Shown here: positions 18,006-22,643 of the stretch, one piece after another
Layout: each line of letters begins with the position of its first letter
Position numbering within the stretch: the first letter of the stretch is position 1
Source: Candidatus Saccharibacteria bacterium QS_5_54_17
GTDB lineage: Bacteria; Patescibacteriota; Saccharimonadia; QS-5-54-17
Assembly (NCBI GenBank): GCA_003022365.1
Contig: PXOU01000018.1
Coordinates: 75,964-139,963, forward strand
Reading direction: 5' to 3'
Length of the DNA: 64,000 nt
Translations under genes and position numbers: made by a program
Notes under the pieces: generated by a model
Databases searched by the model: none
Seen by the model: the letters and a program-made list of their open reading frames with translations, nothing else
What the model was told of the DNA's origin: nothing

Positions 18006-19148
18006 TCACATCTTCACTTTCCCAGACATTAAACGCGGCAGGAGTGAGTCGCGAAGTTCAGCAAGATTGTTAATTTCTAATAGGCAGTTCACGCGCTGTT
18101 TATGTAGCGGTGCAATATACTGGTCAACTTCTTTTAATTTATTATTGCCTGGTATTGAAGCTCTGGCTTCTTTGAGGTGTCTTCTTTGAATATGACCCAT
18201 TGTTGTAGCTTTGTTCGCTGCTGTATCTACAAATTGATTAAGGTGATATTTTGTCCAATAATAGTAAAGCCATTGCGGATACTTATCTGAGGTTACCTTG
18301 AATAAATGTTGGTTGAGGCCGCCATTACCTTCAGTCCAAATTTTTACTTTTAGTGTTCCAGACCAAGAAAAAAGCATATCTCCATTGCAAACTATATATT
18401 TTTCCGGAATATCAGAGGTAACAAAATCGGTTGCATCTGTTATACCTGAATTCAATTCTCTAATTTTAATGACCGGCAAAATATTTTCTGTGTCTTTTGG
18501 TGGATGTTTCTGCATTGCTAGACCATTCAAAAACTCCGCAATGTCATCAAGTGAGAATTTATCCCATTCCTCCGCTTCAGGATTGTCGATAAAGTAGTGC
18601 TTGAAGAGAGCTTGGCCCATTTCCTCCAACGTCTCATTCATCCGCCGATTGAGTTCGATTTTTTGATCTAAACCAGAAAGTACTTTGGCAATTTCTTTTT
18701 GTTCATTCAAAGATGGAAGTTTAAACTCAAAACTTTTAAGCTGATCAGTTTGAACTCTTTGTCTACCTGAAGTTCCAACCATTGACTGTATGGCATATGC
18801 TCTAAATTCTGGAGATCTGCTTAAGTAATAAATAAATTCACTATCTGTTGTATCAGGAGTAGCTCTCAAGACAGTGAATTCTGTTGAGCCTGCAGCTGTT
18901 TCATTATCATCTAAAAAGTCTACAAATGCAGTTTTGCCATTTTCTAAACAAGGAGTAATTCGAGCAAGTAGCGTGTCACCATTTCTAAACTTAGCACCCC
19001 CTTTATATTCTCGAGTTTCAAGGTAAGTAATATTACGCTGAAATGGCTGGACAGCATCCATAGAAACAAATTTCACATCCTCACCTTTTTTAATAGGTGC
19101 TGACGGATTAACTTCTACTACGTCACCAAGCAAAACAGTCTGGCTCAT
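18006..19148 (-). CDS. hsdS: Type I R-M specificity subunit
   Basis: 380 aa; two TRDs separated by a conserved central coiled-coil (LPSLNEQKEIAKVLSGLDQKIELN) and a C-terminal conserved repeat (LAELRDSLLPRLMSGKV). AT-rich. Confidence 0.85.
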   Translation of the reverse strand: MSQTVLLGDVVEVNPSAPIKKGEDVKFVSMDAVQPFQRNITYLETREYKGGAKFRNGDTLLARITPCLENGKTAFVDFLDDNETAAGSTEFTVLRATPDTTDSEFIYYLSRSPEFRAYAIQSMVGTSGRQRVQTDQLKSFEFKLPSLNEQKEIAKVLSGLDQKIELNRRMNETLEEMGQALFKHYFIDNPEAEEWDKFSLDDIAEFLNGLAMQKHPPKDTENILPVIKIRELNSGITDATDFVTSDIPEKYIVCNGDMLFSWSGTLKVKIWTEGNGGLNQHLFKVTSDKYPQWLYYYWTKYHLNQFVDTAANKATTMGHIQRRHLKEARASIPGNNKLKEVDQYIAPLHKQRVNCLLEINNLAELRDSLLPRLMSGKVKM

Positions 19149-19903
19149 TTTTGCCTCTCCGCTTCAATCTCCTCAAGAATCTTTTCTGTCTCTTCTCTAC
19201 TTTCCTTACGGGTTGTTTCAATCTCGCTATTTAATTGTTGCAACTCGTCATGTACACGGTTTCGCTGCTCTTCGGTTAATTTCTTTTTCAATATGCGCCC
19301 AAGCAATCTATTATAGAAAGTCCGTTCATCATTAAGTAATATTCTGGCTTTAGCAATTAAATATTTATTGCCCTCTTCAAGATTACGAAGATAGGCTTTT
19401 AATTCCTTTACGCCTTCTATAAACCTTTCTATATTTTTAAAGTATGTTTCTTGATCGATTTGCTTACTAATGTATGCATTTTTGATATCTCTATAAAATC
19501 TGTTTGTGGCAGCAACTGAACCATTCATAGATTCTACAGACGCCAAAAAAGAAAAATAATCATTTAACAATTCTCGGTTGCCTAGACCCTTGATAATATC
19601 TTTTTCTATATGTAATTCATGCAATTCATTAAAATAGATAAAACCCTGCTGATTTTTTAAATTTCTCTCAGCAATATCGATGTAATCATCTATGATGAAT
19701 TCATTACGAGCTATTATATTCAGGTATTCATTTCCTAAACGCTCAAGTGAAACAAGGGCGTCTCTATGTTTAGCTTTTCTTGCAAAAAGTCTATCCAGTA
19801 GAGTTGCAATCCTGACAAACAGGAAGGCAAAAAAGGCACCTAAAAAAGCATCTAAAGAAATCCCGAAACTTTCTGATCGTATAAATTCATCCAAAAAATT
19901 CAT
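19145..19903 (-). CDS. Hypothetical TM/coiled-coil protein nested in the type I R-M operon
   Basis: 252 aa; N-terminal TM helix (LGAFFAFLFVRIATLL) then a long Lys/Glu-rich helical region. 4-nt overlaps with both neighbours. Very AT-rich. Confidence 0.6.
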   Translation of the reverse strand: MNFLDEFIRSESFGISLDAFLGAFFAFLFVRIATLLDRLFARKAKHRDALVSLERLGNEYLNIIARNEFIIDDYIDIAERNLKNQQGFIYFNELHELHIEKDIIKGLGNRELLNDYFSFLASVESMNGSVAATNRFYRDIKNAYISKQIDQETYFKNIERFIEGVKELKAYLRNLEEGNKYLIAKARILLNDERTFYNRLLGRILKKKLTEEQRNRVHDELQQLNSEIETTRKESREETEKILEEIEAERQK

Positions 19904-20232
19904 CTCTTAAATATTCCTATCATTGAATCGAAAGCATACTTTATAGGTTTGCCTAAAAATTTCGTTGTATTAATAGCAAGAAAACGTTTGCGCCAAGGAT
20001 GTGCAGCTCCGCATTTATGGCAATTCAAAGGCACGGGTTGTTCATTGGGAGTTAAAACAACTACACCTTCAACCTTATATCTACCCCTAATTCTAGAGTT
20101 ACAACTCATGCAACTTGTTGTGGTTTGAGTTCCGCATTTATGACAATGGTCTTGTAAAAATTCACGGTTTAAACCTCTAGAAGTAATTTTGTGACCCTTG
20201 AGGCAAACTTGCATTGTGTCGTATGAGCCCAT
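19900..20232 (-). CDS. Double zinc-ribbon protein
   Basis: 110 aa with CxxH/CxxC pairs: CLKGH, CHKCG, CMSCN, CHKCG. Coupled to neighbours. Confidence 0.55.
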   Translation of the reverse strand: MGSYDTMQVCLKGHKITSRGLNREFLQDHCHKCGTQTTTSCMSCNSRIRGRYKVEGVVVLTPNEQPVPLNCHKCGAAHPWRKRFLAINTTKFLGKPIKYAFDSMIGIFKR

Positions 20233-20498
20233 TAATCTTTTCTCTCTTTCTGGTCTCTGTCGTCTACTTGCTTTTTTGCATTTTCAGGAAGTGCCTCAAA
20301 CATTTTGCATTCATTTCTCCCTGTCTCATGGCTTTGTACGCAAGGAAAACCGATTGACATAATCGAAATATTCGTGGTAATATAATCTTGATAAGTAATT
20401 CCTCTGTCGTGGGGCTCCGTAAGGTTCCTCGTAAATAGCGACAGAGGTTTTATCTTTTTGCTCAGCTTGTTCAGAGATGAATCATACAAAGAGTGCAT
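20232..20498 (-). CDS. Small hypothetical protein (uncertain)
   Basis: ORF 20232..20579 overlaps the upstream gene. An internal ATG at 20498 would give an 88-aa product with only a 17-nt overlap. Confidence 0.3.
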   Translation of the reverse strand: MHSLYDSSLNKLSKKIKPLSLFTRNLTEPHDRGITYQDYITTNISIMSIGFPCVQSHETGRNECKMFEALPENAKKQVDDRDQKERKD

Positions 20499-21126
20499 TT
20501 TCTTCCACCACTTTCTGGTTAATGATGTTCGCATACGATTCATCGCCGTGCTCGTATTTCCTGAAGAAGCTCCATGCAACGAAATCTACTGCCTGTAGTC
20601 CTTTTTCTTGCGAAGGAGTAGCGATTTCTACCTGAATGTTAAGTCTATGGTTCTCTTTGGTTTGGCTCTTCAAGTAGGCGCCGAAATTTTCGTTTAGAAA
20701 TTTATTCGTTTCACGTTTGGAAGCCACGAAATGGATGCTTTCATTCAGCGGTACAAGTTTTTTGCTGACCATGCGGTCAAGCAAAATGTTCACCACGTAG
20801 TTATAAAGTACGTGCTTTTCGTCCTGTAGTTTGGTGTACACTTTCTGCTTGTTAAGACGAATGATTAAGATGCTGATGTCCTTTTGGGTGAGGTTGCGTA
20901 GCAATTTAACACGGGTGGTTGGTTTTTCCTTGTAAGCATGAAGCATGCCGTGATGGCTCTTTATTTCTTTTTTAGAAAACCCTGAAAATATCTTTTTGAT
21001 CACTTTCTCAACCGGCCTTTTGTTGTTACAAAAGAGGAAGCTGACAACGAAATATTTGCTGGTCTTTGACTTTGTGAAGTCGAAACCAAGATCGCCGCTT
21101 TCGTCCATGAATACATACGAGCTCAT
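20482..21126 (-). CDS. DUF3800-like protein
   Basis: 214 aa; N-terminal YVFMDESGD and C-terminal LQAVDFVAW motifs resemble DUF3800 (recalled from memory). ATGA overlap with the hsdM stop. Confidence 0.55.
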
Positions 21127-22643
21127 ACGTCATACCCGATTTTCTTCAAATTATCTTTAATCTGCTGTTCCAGCTCATGGCTTTGTTCGAACTGCTCACC
21201 CAGGTCTTTGGTGAGGCGTTGCATTTTCTCTTCGAATGCTTCATCATCTTCCTCCACCTCTTCGGCGCCCACGTAACGGCCGGGCGTGAGAACGTATTCA
21301 TGTTCTTTTACTTCTTCCAGTGAAGCAGCTTTACAAAAACCGGGTGTGTCTTCATATTCCCCGCTCTCATCCCGCCAGGCGTGATAGGTACCAGCAACTC
21401 TAGCGATGTCTTCTTCCGAAAGTACGCGGTTGCGGCGATTGATCATATGGCCCATGTTGCGCGCGTCAATGAAGAGAATTTCATCTCTATCAGTACGTTC
21501 GCGGGAAACAAACCACAGACAGGCCGGAATGCCAGTATTGAAGAATAAATGACTCGGCAGCGTAACGATAGCATCTACTAACCCGGCTTCCAGGATATTC
21601 TTGCGAATATCGCCCTCTCCGGATGTATTGGAACTCATGGAGCCGTTAGCCAACACGAAGCCGGCAATGCCTTTTGGCCCCAGATGGTGGATGAAGTGCT
21701 GTACCCAGGCAAAGTTGGCATTATTTTTGGGCGGCGTGCCGAACTTCCAGCGCACGTCATTTTGCAACTGTTCTCCGCCCCAATCATCGTCATTAAATGG
21801 TGGATTGGCCAGTATGAAGTCGGCTTTAAGATCCGGATGTTTGTCGTTATGGAAAGAGTTGCCTTGGCGAATGTCGGCATCAATGCCACGAATGGCCATA
21901 TTCATCTTAGCAAGGCGCCACGTGGTTGGGTTCGATTCCTGCCCGTAAATGGCGATGTCGTCCAATCGGCCTTGATGGTGCCCCACGAATTTCTCCGACT
22001 GGACGAACATGCCGCCGCTACCGCAGCACGGGTCGTAAATTCTTCCTTTATACGGCTCGATCATTCCCGTTAAAAGCTGGACAATGCTTCTGGGTGTGTA
22101 GAACTGGCCGCCGCGCTTGCCTTCGGCATCGGCGAACATACCAATGAAGTATTCATAAATCCGGCCCAGAATATCCTTGCTGTTATGGCCATCGCCATTG
22201 AGCGAAATACTGCTGAAAAGATCAATCAATTCGCCGAGACGTTGCTTGTCCAAAGCTTCCCGTCCGTAGTTTTTGGGTAACACTCCTTTGAGTGACGGAT
22301 TATCACGCTCAATGGCATCCATGGCTTCATCAATGAGCGTACCGATGTTCGGTTGTTTGGCATTGTCGCGCAGATATGACCAGCGAGCTTCTGACGGTAC
22401 CCAAAAGACATTTTTAGCTGCATACCAATCGCGATCCTCGGGATCAAATTCCTCATCCAGTGCCTGCTGATAACGCTCATCAAAGGCATCGGAGATGTAT
22501 TTAAGGAAAATCAGTCCCAGCACCACGTGCTTATACTCGGCCGCGTCCATGTTGTTCCGCATCTTATTAGCCGACTGCCACAGTTTCTGTTCTACGTTTT
22601 GGATGTCCAAAACAAAAACTCCCTTACTTTTATACCGTTGCAC
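21123..22643 (-). CDS. hsdM: Type I R-M DNA methyltransferase subunit
   Basis: HsdM N-terminal domain, AdoMet motif I (DPCCGSGG), catalytic NPPF. Track start is GTG 22643. TTG 22610 with an aagggag SD is a likely alternative. TGaTATAAT extended -10 at about 22655-22663. Confidence 0.9.

Follow-up and report, generated by a model that had tools for sequence, protein, structure and literature searches.

The type I restriction–modification (R-M) operon in the window, i.e., the whole stretch of 64,000 nucleotides analysed, raises the question of what occupies the gap between hsdM and hsdS and what such genes could do there. The reading preferred here, to which we assign a probability of about 0.6, is that this gap is a hypervariable cargo slot holding two unrelated accessory modules, with the roles proposed below. 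Accessory genes embedded in R-M operons are already known, namely PrrC and Ronin (10.1101/2023.04.06.535777) and TgvAB (PMC11411939), and guilt-by-embedding also has a precedent (10.1101/2024.01.29.577857).

The hsdM, hsdS, and hsdR genes on the minus strand constitute a complete type I R-M system according to Pfam and PADLOC (Table 1). The start of hsdM is uncertain (GTG at 22643 vs ~22610 in the ENA gene call, 495 aa), while hsdS encodes two target-recognition domains. The sequence-only reading had proposed four coupled proteins between hsdM and hsdS; its recognition of a type I operon with accessory genes at this position stands, whereas the slot in fact contains three accessory protein genes and an antisense small RNA (sRNA) gene. 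The three ATGA-type 4-nt overlaps that it reported are real, joining hsdM to the DUF3800 gene (21126/21123), the DUF2321 gene to the 252-aa gene, TMcc (19903/19900), and the stop of TMcc to the start of hsdS (19148/19145). The cargo comprises at least two modules that differ in composition and distribution and is not a single insertion, and none of its proteins matched the defence models of PADLOC 2.0.

Table 1. Features of the type I R-M operon and its cargo, in order along the minus strand.
Feature	Position	Strand	Basis or remark
hsdM	21123..22643	-	Pfam N6_Mtase 7.7e-112, HsdM_N 5.3e-28; PADLOC MTase_I 4.8e-216; ENA gene call
DUF3800 protein, 214 aa, predicted RNase H2-like nuclease	20482..21126	-	start overlaps hsdM stop (ATGA)
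Spurious ORF (third cargo gene of the sequence-only reading)	20232..20579	-	no conserved frame; no family match
Structured small RNA gene, 71 nt, antisense to operon	20389..20459	+	covariance model R1, covariation, RNAalifold, MFE
Sigma-70-type promoter of the sRNA	20354..20383	+	promoter scan 10/12 matches, extended -10
13-nt remnant ACAAAGCCATGAG of direct repeat of hsdM 3' end	20325..20337	-	other copy 21174-21186
DUF2321-type zinc-ribbon protein, 110 aa	19900..20232	-	PF10083 1.1e-24, profile positions 2-84 of 157 only
TMcc, 252-aa membrane-anchored helical-bundle protein	19145..19903	-	unannotated family
hsdS, specificity subunit	18006..19148	-	Pfam Methylase_S 7.8e-26, two stretches; PADLOC Specificity_I 1e-98
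hsdR, restriction/translocase subunit	14785..17889	-	Pfam HSDR_N, SWI2_SNF2, T1R_D3-like, T1RH-like_C; PADLOC REase_I E=0

The module adjoining hsdS (module 2, 19145-20232) consists of the DUF2321 zinc-ribbon gene and the gene of the membrane-anchored helical protein TMcc, and is coupled to hsdS. The DUF2321 protein contains CxxC motifs at residues 30, 41, and 71 and a short C-terminal tail, which is similar in P0128, one further close homologue with 40% identity. P0128 belongs to an hsdMSR-RmuC-GmrSD island, and a TM protein comes after it. Phage DUF2321 genes are solitary and lie on the opposite strand beside repressor and anti-repressor genes. TMcc shows a generic helical-bundle fold and is linked to hsdS in L002, L004, and L086, and the gene in front of it varies between loci. 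The family recurs directly ahead of hsdS in type I systems of different families, preceded by a partner gene that varies. By analogy with PrrC and Ronin, module 2 would act as an effector or guard with a dosage linked to HsdS. Alternatively, DUF2321 and TMcc could serve the R-M enzyme itself in a structural or regulatory role, e.g., by tethering it to the membrane or by controlling how HsdS is assembled or expressed, instead of acting as a separate defence or abortive-infection effector, an explanation that we consider doubtful. It agrees with the tight 4-nt overlap between TMcc and hsdS, shown by 4 of the 5 close loci and in two different type I families, with the fact that no enzymatic domain was found in TMcc, and with the small zinc ribbon of DUF2321, whose fold would suit nucleic-acid binding or regulation. 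However, most of the more distant TMcc relatives (23-35% identity) are solitary and outside R-M loci, and the variable front partners include a protein with a HEPN-like RNAAAH motif. Moreover, most type I R-M systems function without TMcc- or DUF2321-like proteins.

The module next to hsdM (module 1) is a discrete cassette of ~0.8 kb, about 20325-21124, formed by the DUF3800 gene and a convergent sRNA gene. The DUF3800 protein displays an RNase H2-like fold with invariant DE...QxxD residues, and earlier literature ties DUF3800 to ncRNAs and to the RNase H fold (PMC5737381, PMC10910872, PMC7736814). Protein and sRNA are an obligate pair, the RNA being found after essentially every member of the subfamily. 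On its right, the cassette ends at the 13-nt hsdM 3'-end remnant, the point at which close relatives cease to match the window. The syntenic loci L118 and L119 (~91-93% nucleotide identity) align with the window from hsdM only to ~20305-20325 (20305 in L118, 20325 in L119), beyond which they carry 28-60 nt of the hsdM-3'-end repeat (28 nt in L118; the full 60 nt in L119, 96.7% identical to window positions 21184-21125) and then a different gene; their contigs end before hsdS. Locus-specific flanking repeats of 27-60 nt also occur in L042, L066, and L084. L086, an orthologous locus at greater distance (hsdM 72.6% identical), has another cargo. Relatives at ~91-93% identity differ in the genes that follow the cassette, so the slot is hypervariable. 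The secondary insertion proposed from the sequence alone is thus borne out in that the content of the slot is secondary and exchangeable (L118, L119, L086), but at least two modules are involved rather than one insertion, and at the hsdM-hsdS junction the DUF3800 and sRNA part is the only one shared by the window with L118 and L119.

A further explanation is that this cassette is chiefly a selfish mobile element, whose RNase H-fold enzyme and RNA mediate or regulate insertion with no host defence benefit. The commonest neighbours of the cassettes are R-M families, and hsdM lies within four genes in 11 of 82 loci. However, 87% of the cassettes do not adjoin hsdM and many of them lie beside housekeeping genes, so the embedding in R-M loci may reflect an insertion preference rather than function. 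The DUF3800 subfamily is absent from viral contigs. Several observations make the selfish element improbable: the top structural matches of the DUF3800 protein are RNase H2 and H3 and not transposases, no terminal inverted repeats were noticed, and the complementarity of an sRNA to its own flanks (8.9 nt) hardly exceeds that of a foreign sRNA (7.7 nt). Furthermore, the precise in-frame ATGA fusion to hsdM and an orientation that follows the hsd genes in every R-M-embedded case suggest selection for co-expression.

The RNA partner folds into a three-helix hairpin (P1-P2-P3), carries two conserved loops of the GUAAAU type, and has a U-run at its 3' end. Covariance model R1, which was built without the window sequence, recovers it with 89.8 bits (E=2e-20) as the sole match in the 64 kb. 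In the alignment, 99.0% of cells are paired and compensatory changes are found in 12 of 19 pairs, values reached by none of 500 shuffles, while slid alignments are only 30-56% paired. The same structure was obtained de novo by RNAalifold (13 of 22 pairs compensatory), and the minimum free energy is -26.8 kcal/mol on the plus strand (z -4.9) vs -17.6 on the minus strand. The conserved element is present in 79 of 80 DUF3800 homologues, always 3' of the gene and antisense to it. Its strand follows from a near-invariant G.U pair together with 27 U.G pairs, from the model bit scores of the two strands (85 vs 18), and likewise from the U-tail and a promoter on the same side. This promoter, which is convergent inside the R-M operon, consists of TTGACA, 18 nt, and TAATAT, with TG preceding the -10 hexamer and the second hexamer ending 5 nt ahead of the start of the RNA model; its form (TTGACA-N16-19-TAnnnT) is conserved across related loci, and it stands at a fixed distance in 46 of 75 of them under a strict pattern. 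On these sequence features, the sRNA is predicted to be transcribed from the plus strand. Neither the window RNA, even at E<=10 on 161 nt, nor the RNA of ten related loci matches any Rfam 15 model, and no obvious free guide-like segment was found in the window RNA.

It is very improbable that the conserved hairpin is a DNA-level or cis element, i.e., a terminator of the DUF3800 gene, an attC-type recombination site, or a protein-binding palindrome. A long imperfect hairpin directly after the gene, in a cassette that behaves as an insertion unit, would be expected of such elements, but on the DUF3800 sense strand the hairpin has no U-tract, the U-run following it only on the antisense strand, and A.C and C.A mismatches appear where the other strand has G.U. 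The high conservation of the loops, the antisense-strand promoter at a fixed distance, and a sub-threshold antisense match of the related locus L002 to DUF3800-IX, classed as an sRNA by Rfam, also argue against it.

The supposed third of four cargo genes lies over this sRNA. Its open frame, counted from a TTG, crosses the sRNA complement and the remnant of the hsdM 3' end; from ATG, it spans 20232-20498 and corresponds to the GenBank hypothetical protein BRC19_02905 (88 aa). No family match was found in Pfam, PADLOC, NCBIfam, or PHROGs. The equivalent frame in 74 related loci has a median of 33 open codons and at least 88 in only 4, the ORF called in relatives at ~91-93% nucleotide identity has 54 or 74 aa, not 88, and BLASTP matches are limited to the translated RNA core KIKPLxLFTRNxTEPHDRGIT. 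The ORF was rejected as a conserved coding gene, given that its frame is not conserved and overlies a covarying antisense sRNA with a promoter. Because this sRNA has its own promoter and a terminator-like tail, the continuous chain of translational coupling formerly proposed is broken between DUF3800 and DUF2321.

The cargo had been described as AT-rich, and overall GC is indeed 0.31-0.41 across 18000-21100 vs 0.49-0.52 in hsdM/hsdR and 0.53 in the whole window. However, the block of low GC3 is formed by DUF2321 (0.288), TMcc (0.29), and also hsdS (0.291), while DUF3800 (0.53) matches hsdM (0.55) and hsdR (0.57); AT-richness hence does not set the cargo apart from the hsd genes. The same pattern, high in hsdM/hsdR and low in hsdS and the embedded genes, recurs in unrelated type I loci; thus, it is a general property of the variable core rather than a dated signal of insertion. 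One four-gene protein-coding cargo, inserted once and translated in continuous coupling within the R-M operon, is hardly tenable, since the real ATGA overlaps, the GenBank annotation of the 88-aa ORF, and the low overall GC are outweighed by the unconserved frame over the sRNA, two GC3 classes (0.53 vs 0.29), a common part with close relatives limited to DUF3800 and sRNA, and the independent distribution of the modules.

Within the two-module slot, the cargo may serve in defence, as a toxin, or as a guard. Most likely, the sRNA would bind, or be processed by, the DUF3800 nuclease and hold it in check or license it, which would make the pair a toxin/antitoxin-like or RNA-dependent nuclease module, serving R-M loci as accessory anti-phage or addiction cargo. 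Moreover, as the sRNA is fully complementary to the operon read-through transcript, it could modulate the expression of the downstream hsdS and hsdR. A protein gene is also paired with a small RNA in type I and type III toxin-antitoxin systems with RNA antitoxins, such as bsrG/SR4, txpA/RatA, and ToxIN. The convergent layout in the window, with an RNA complementary to the mRNA 3' end, resembles 3'-overlapping type I pairs, and the structured, probably protein-binding RNA resembles type III. In contrast, an RNase H-like enzyme of 214 aa takes the place of the small membrane peptide, and a single structured RNA unit that of the tandem repeats upstream of the toxin.

The RNA motifs DUF3800-I to -XI (Weinberg et al. 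2017, PMC5737381; Rfam RF02969, RF02968, and others) share with the window a conserved, covarying structured RNA beside a DUF3800 gene, with UAA-containing conserved loops followed by a terminator-like 3' end, and different DUF3800 subfamilies carry different RNAs. The window RNA differs in matching no Rfam 15 model, a distinction drawn against Rfam models only, in its invariable position 3' of and antisense to the gene, and in its defined promoter, while the pair as a whole differs in forming a discrete cassette that occurs repeatedly inside R-M operons. Accessory genes inside type I hsd operons are likewise represented by PrrC, from the EcoprrI type Ic locus, and by the Rlo genes of Campylobacter hsd loci, PrrC being described in two reports (10.1101/2023.04.06.535777, 10.1101/2024.01.29.577857) as a latent abortive-infection effector restrained by the R-M enzyme. 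The cargo has no sequence relationship to them and no PADLOC PrrC match, and it differs in its position between hsdM and hsdS and in its composition, which combines an RNase H-like nuclease and its sRNA with a zinc ribbon and a membrane protein. Ronin (ronA-hsdS-hsdM; Silas et al. 2023, 10.1101/2023.04.06.535777) also links a membrane-helix protein tightly to hsdS and hsdM; HsdMS suppresses the toxicity of RonA, anti-restriction proteins release it, and the system also requires a non-coding region (10.1101/2023.04.06.535777). However, RonA has 61 aa and is not homologous to the 252-aa helical bundle TMcc, and Ronin lacks hsdR, whereas the operon in the window is complete. Finally, the 2024 case of an independent defence module nested in a type I R-M cluster shows the same arrangement as this putative defence cargo, which differs in containing no GmrSD domains and no protein represented in PADLOC 2.0. 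GmrSD genes do occur in or beside the hsd genes of L002 and L085.

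Pfam and PADLOC matches indicate a complete type I R-M system at this locus. HsdM combines an N6-adenine methyltransferase domain (PF02384, 7.7e-112) with HsdM_N (PF12161, 5.3e-28) and matches PADLOC MTase_I, while HsdS contains two target-recognition domains (PF01420, in two stretches; PADLOC Specificity_I, 1e-98) and HsdR an N-terminal nuclease region (HSDR_N, 4.4e-50), an SF2 translocase (SWI2_SNF2, 5.9e-81), and T1RH-like_C (2.9e-123). The sequence-only reading had placed four protein-coding cargo genes between hsdM and hsdS, coupled through three 4-nt ATGA overlaps. All three overlaps are found in the sequence; the cargo, however, comprises three protein-coding genes and one antisense sRNA gene, the frame of the fourth ORF being poorly conserved. 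The first module, or cassette, consists of a DUF3800 gene and a 71-nt sRNA, and the second of a DUF2321 gene and the gene of TMcc, a membrane-anchored helical protein.

Features of the hsd locus in the window and direct repeats flanking the DUF3800–sRNA cassette in related loci
Feature	Locus	Coordinates	Strand	Basis or remark
hsdM	window	21123-22643	-	Pfam, PADLOC
DUF3800 ORF, 214 aa	window	20482-21126	-	PF12686
ORF, 88/115 aa	window	20232-20579	-	familyless; 88 aa from ATG at 20498
sRNA, 71 nt	window	20389-20459	+	covariance model
sRNA promoter	window	TTGACA 20354-20359; TAATAT 20378-20383	+	18-nt spacer; TG before TAATAT
DUF2321 ORF, 110 aa	window	19900-20232	-	PF10083
TMcc ORF, 252 aa	window	19145-19903	-	familyless
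hsdS	window	18006-19148	-	Pfam, PADLOC
hsdR	window	14785-17889	-	Pfam
flanking repeats	L042	6925-6967 / 7816-7858		
flanking repeats	L066	~6950-6993 / 7780-7823		
flanking repeats	L084	6914-6940 / 8015-8041		
flanking repeats	L119	2849-2908 / 3698-3757		

The sRNA was characterized in 80 loci with close DUF3800 homologues (55-75% identity), fetched from CPR phyla, Ignavibacteria, Omnitrophota, Nitrospirota, Proteobacteria, and others; at least 518 such loci exist. In nearly all of the 80 the same element lies 35-62 nt past the DUF3800 stop and presents, on the strand opposite to DUF3800, a promoter followed by a three-helix hairpin and a U-run. The strict promoter pattern TTGACA-N16-19-TAnnnT occurs at a fixed distance from the sRNA in 46 of 75 loci. 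When 72 sequences are aligned, 99.0% of cells are paired and 12 of 19 pairs show compensatory changes (213 cells), values that none of 500 shuffles reached, whereas slid controls were 30-56% paired. Run de novo, RNAalifold arrives at these helices as well and counts 13 of 22 pairs as compensatory. A covariance model from which the window sequence was left out gives a sole match in the 64 kb (89.8 bits, E=2e-20), which folds at -26.8 kcal/mol (z=-4.9). This RNA carries a pair of conserved GUAAAU-type loops, and its tail is terminator-like. The strand was assigned from the promoter, the U-tail, the G.U and U.G pairs, and the covariance-model scores: a near-invariant G.U pair and 27 U.G pairs at another position would turn into A.C or C.A mismatches if the element were read in the sense of DUF3800, and the model scores one element at 85.4 bits versus 18 for its opposite strand.

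Guide-like complementarity of the sRNA to its own flanks was considered and rejected, since the longest match averages 8.9 nt versus 7.7 nt for foreign RNA and thus provides no guide signal. One related locus (L066) contains tandem DUF3800 genes of the subfamily (208 and 211 aa, ~6076-7633) with a second sRNA copy nearby, which is a 71-nt outlier in this complementarity test. A DnaA-box-like 9-mer (TTATCCACA or TGTGGATAA, allowing one mismatch) closely precedes the sRNA -35 box, ~102-125 nt past the DUF3800 stop and in either orientation, in 26 of 79 loci (L009, L016, L022, L028, L032, L033, L039, L045, L053, L057, L058, L060, L076, L079-L084, and others), against a background of 0.05 per 160 nt in these loci; the window copy does not carry it.

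The fourth ORF overlies this RNA. It has no match in Pfam, PADLOC, NCBIfam, or PHROGs, and BLASTP of its 88-aa form against ORFs of related loci returns matches limited to KIKPLxLFTRNxTEPHDRGIT, a short core that falls in unrelated frames and in ORFs of differing lengths; the DNA beneath this core is the hairpin. Across the sRNA element the frame is not conserved (median of 33 codons stop-to-stop in 74 loci), and the equivalent called ORF measures 54 or 74 aa in near-identical relatives. Because single-linkage clustering had grouped short downstream ORFs with hsdS, the small ORF was also considered as an hsdS fragment, a possibility discarded on finding the similarity confined to the translated RNA core. 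BRC19_02905, as GenBank still lists the 88-aa frame (hypothetical protein), is an artefact that masks a well-conserved small RNA, and the same mis-annotation probably recurs in hundreds of CPR and other genomes. In a related hsd locus with a DUF3800 gene of a different subfamily (L002, 4860-5045; duplicate locus L003), a called 61-aa ORF after that gene overlies an antisense hairpin RNA with a U-tail and is probably spurious too.

Eleven unrelated RNA motifs tied to DUF3800 genes were described by Weinberg et al. in 2017, with recurrent UAA and 3' terminators, for which the authors had no functional hypothesis (PMC5737381); part of them are in Rfam (RF02969, RF02968). The window RNA resembles these motifs in its covarying conserved structure beside a DUF3800 gene and its terminator-like tail, its GUAAAU-type loops standing beside their recurrent UAA, but the existing covariance models fail to match it: Rfam 15 gives no match, whether at the gathering score or with the limit relaxed to E<=1 over 900 nt and to E<=10 over 161 nt, and in ten related loci the RNA matches no Rfam family, DUF3800-* included. 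The search is sensitive enough for such motifs, as demonstrated by a weak DUF3800-IX match antisense in L002 (24.8 bits versus a gathering score of 36.8), where a TTGACA-17-TATCAT promoter can be read by eye. With its conserved loops and tail and without an Rfam 15 match, the window RNA is therefore treated as a further DUF3800-associated motif, distinct from those modelled in Rfam 15. This adds to the DUF3800 RNA puzzle a promoter-to-terminator sRNA of fixed strand for a very large subfamily (1714 clusters).

The protein partner matches PF12686 over the full-length profile (positions 1-149; 2e-13, 51.7 bits where the cut-off is 21). Residues D8, E9, Q178, and D181 are invariant both in 21 and in 31 sequences and make up the N-terminal DE and C-terminal QxxD motifs known from DUF3800 (PMC7736814). 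The AlphaFold model (pLDDT 89.9) predicts an RNase H2-like fold, in agreement with published predictions of an RNase H-like fold for DUF3800 (PMC10910872). A search of 2.9 million viral contigs yielded essentially no member of the subfamily, only relatives with 24-29% identity, and plasmids gave only distant matches (25-31%).

The edges of the cassette emerge from two metagenome contigs, L118 and L119, which are syntenic with the window at ~91-93% nucleotide identity and share the order gltX, DUF3048, Ham1, radC, hsdM, DUF3800, sRNA. Both align to the window downward from 22622, L118 as far as 20305 and L119 as far as 20325, where the alignment stops at a second, directly repeated copy of the hsdM 3' end. 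This copy spans 28 nt in L118 and 60 nt in L119, the latter 96.7% identical to window 21184-21125. After the repeat, both contigs carry a different, 244-aa DUF3800-like gene, while in the window 13 nt of the hsdM repeat remain (20325-20337), followed by DUF2321. Locus-specific direct repeats of 27-45 nt also flank the DUF3800 gene and sRNA in three unrelated loci. These 27-60-nt flanking repeats look like long target duplications, and the DUF3800–sRNA pair is therefore a ~0.8-kb unit, apparently inserted at the hsdM end with target duplication. Content after the cassette varies between close strains; an orthologous-junction comparison of the kind proposed in the sequence-only reading reveals relatives with a different gene in that place. 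The idea of an inserted cargo stands in that the slot content differs between close strains and needs amending in that the cargo is two modules, each with its own history. The hsdM–hsdS gap is a strain-level hypervariable slot in Saccharibacteria, whose tiny genomes make retained defence cargo informative. More broadly, hsdM lies within four genes of the cassette in 11 of 82 loci, always co-directional, with the cassette after hsdM or after hsdS. Among 107 immediate neighbours of the cassette, R-M families are by far the most frequent (N6_Mtase 9, Methylase_S 6, ResIII 6, Eco57I 5, and N6_N4_Mtase 3), yet the majority of its copies are located away from R-M loci.

Base composition redraws the AT-rich region. 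GC3 values are 0.552 in hsdM, 0.526 in DUF3800, and 0.568 in hsdR, against 0.288 in DUF2321, 0.285 in TMcc, and 0.291 in hsdS. Therefore, an AT-rich block does exist, but it is DUF2321–TMcc–hsdS and not the cargo as such, since DUF3800 resembles hsdM and hsdR. Four related loci (L002, L086, L010, L059) display the same contrast, with high hsdM and hsdR and low hsdS and embedded genes, and operons of this kind generally show it in their variable core.

In module 2, the DUF2321 protein matches PF10083 (1.1e-24, 87.3 bits where the cut-off is 24) only at profile positions 2-84 of 157, retaining the zinc-ribbon N-terminal half and missing the C-terminal half. The literature contains nothing on DUF2321 function. 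Its only other close homologue belongs to an hsdMSR-RmuC-GmrSD island, where the next gene encodes a different TM protein, and full-length DUF2321 genes of temperate phages stand alone on the opposite strand beside repressor and anti-repressor genes. TMcc has no Pfam, PADLOC, NCBIfam, or PHROGs match and few close homologues; a profile search extends the family to 590 clusters (50% identity), and Pfam and PADLOC assign a family to none of them. In four of five loci with close homologues, TMcc is immediately upstream of hsdS with stop and start overlapping, and the preceding gene differs from locus to locus: DUF2321 in the window, genes of 183-aa and 208-aa proteins in L002, a 187-aa TM protein gene in L004, and in L086 the gene of a 364-aa protein with an HEPN-like RNAAAH motif. 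The L086 hsdM is 72.6% identical to that of the window, and L002, where a DUF3800 gene with an RNA also follows hsdM, belongs to another type I family. Embedded genes of the related hsd operons (L086 1041-2135, L004 2639-4088) include those for the RNAAAH protein, for an Abi_alpha protein, and for a protein of 225 aa bearing an RHSVAH motif, typical cargo of the abortive-infection type.

The nesting of accessory genes in type I R-M operons is already known, and embedding precedents for such cargo include TgvAB (PMC11411939) and guilt-by-embedding (10.1101/2024.01.29.577857). New are an RNA without an Rfam 15 match mis-annotated as a protein, the way its cassette behaves, and a membrane protein of an unannotated family whose gene is coupled to hsdS. 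By guilt-by-embedding logic, R-M embedding suggests a conflict or defence role for DUF3800 and its sRNA. DUF3800 would be a nuclease controlled or licensed by the sRNA, in a toxin–antitoxin-like or RNA-dependent manner; in architecture, with a convergent sRNA and obligate pairing, the two resemble type I/III RNA-antitoxin systems. The DUF2321/TMcc pair may be an effector tied to HsdS as in PrrC or Ronin (10.1101/2023.04.06.535777), with TMcc as a candidate Ronin-like guard, and both modules would represent accessory defence or addiction cargo. The likeness to PrrC and Ronin lies in tight hsd linkage, with 4-nt overlaps with hsdM and hsdS and a recurrent TMcc–hsdS association, and does not extend to PrrC or RonA homology, as no cargo protein has a PADLOC match. 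This lack of PADLOC matches and the location of most copies of both families outside R-M loci count against accessory defence.

Tentatively, at a probability of about 0.3, DUF3800 and its antisense sRNA may constitute an unrecognised, widespread and mobile two-component immunity or addiction cassette of protein and RNA that generates long target duplications and prefers nesting in R-M operons, with the sRNA as antitoxin or licensing cofactor. If true, it would open a first route to the function of the DUF3800 RNA motifs. Module 2 might be an accessory subunit of the R-M system, which seems unlikely; TMcc adjoins hsdS in most loci with close homologues, and most of its distant relatives (23-35% identity) stand alone. 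Somewhat more doubtful is a purely selfish cassette. That the hairpin acts at the DNA level is very improbable; the strand specificity of its G.U pairs, the conservation of the promoter, and the place of the U-tail spoke against reading it as an attC site of an integron cassette or as a sense-strand terminator, and both were discarded. As regards the proposed immunity or addiction cassette, DUF3800 and its sRNA form a discrete unit repeatedly embedded within R-M operons and provide compact constructs for testing.

As a whole, the R-M island lies between a tRNA gene and radC, with GC below that of its flanks. The tRNA gene (13853-13925, 60.4 bits) is located 0.9 kb past the hsdR end, with its 5' end running into the 3' end of a GIY-YIG ORF of 85 aa (13911-14168). 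At the other side, the radC–hsdM gap of the window includes ~0.9 kb at GC ~0.36 (22623-23517) with a 139-aa familyless ORF (22989-23408), and this segment is probably another strain-specific insertion; the same gap measures only ~150 nt in L118. In turn, Ham1 and radC of L118 are separated by a gene (6977-7412) for a 124-aa protein with an HMUDK_hel domain; the window, whose corresponding junction falls at ~24153, lacks it.
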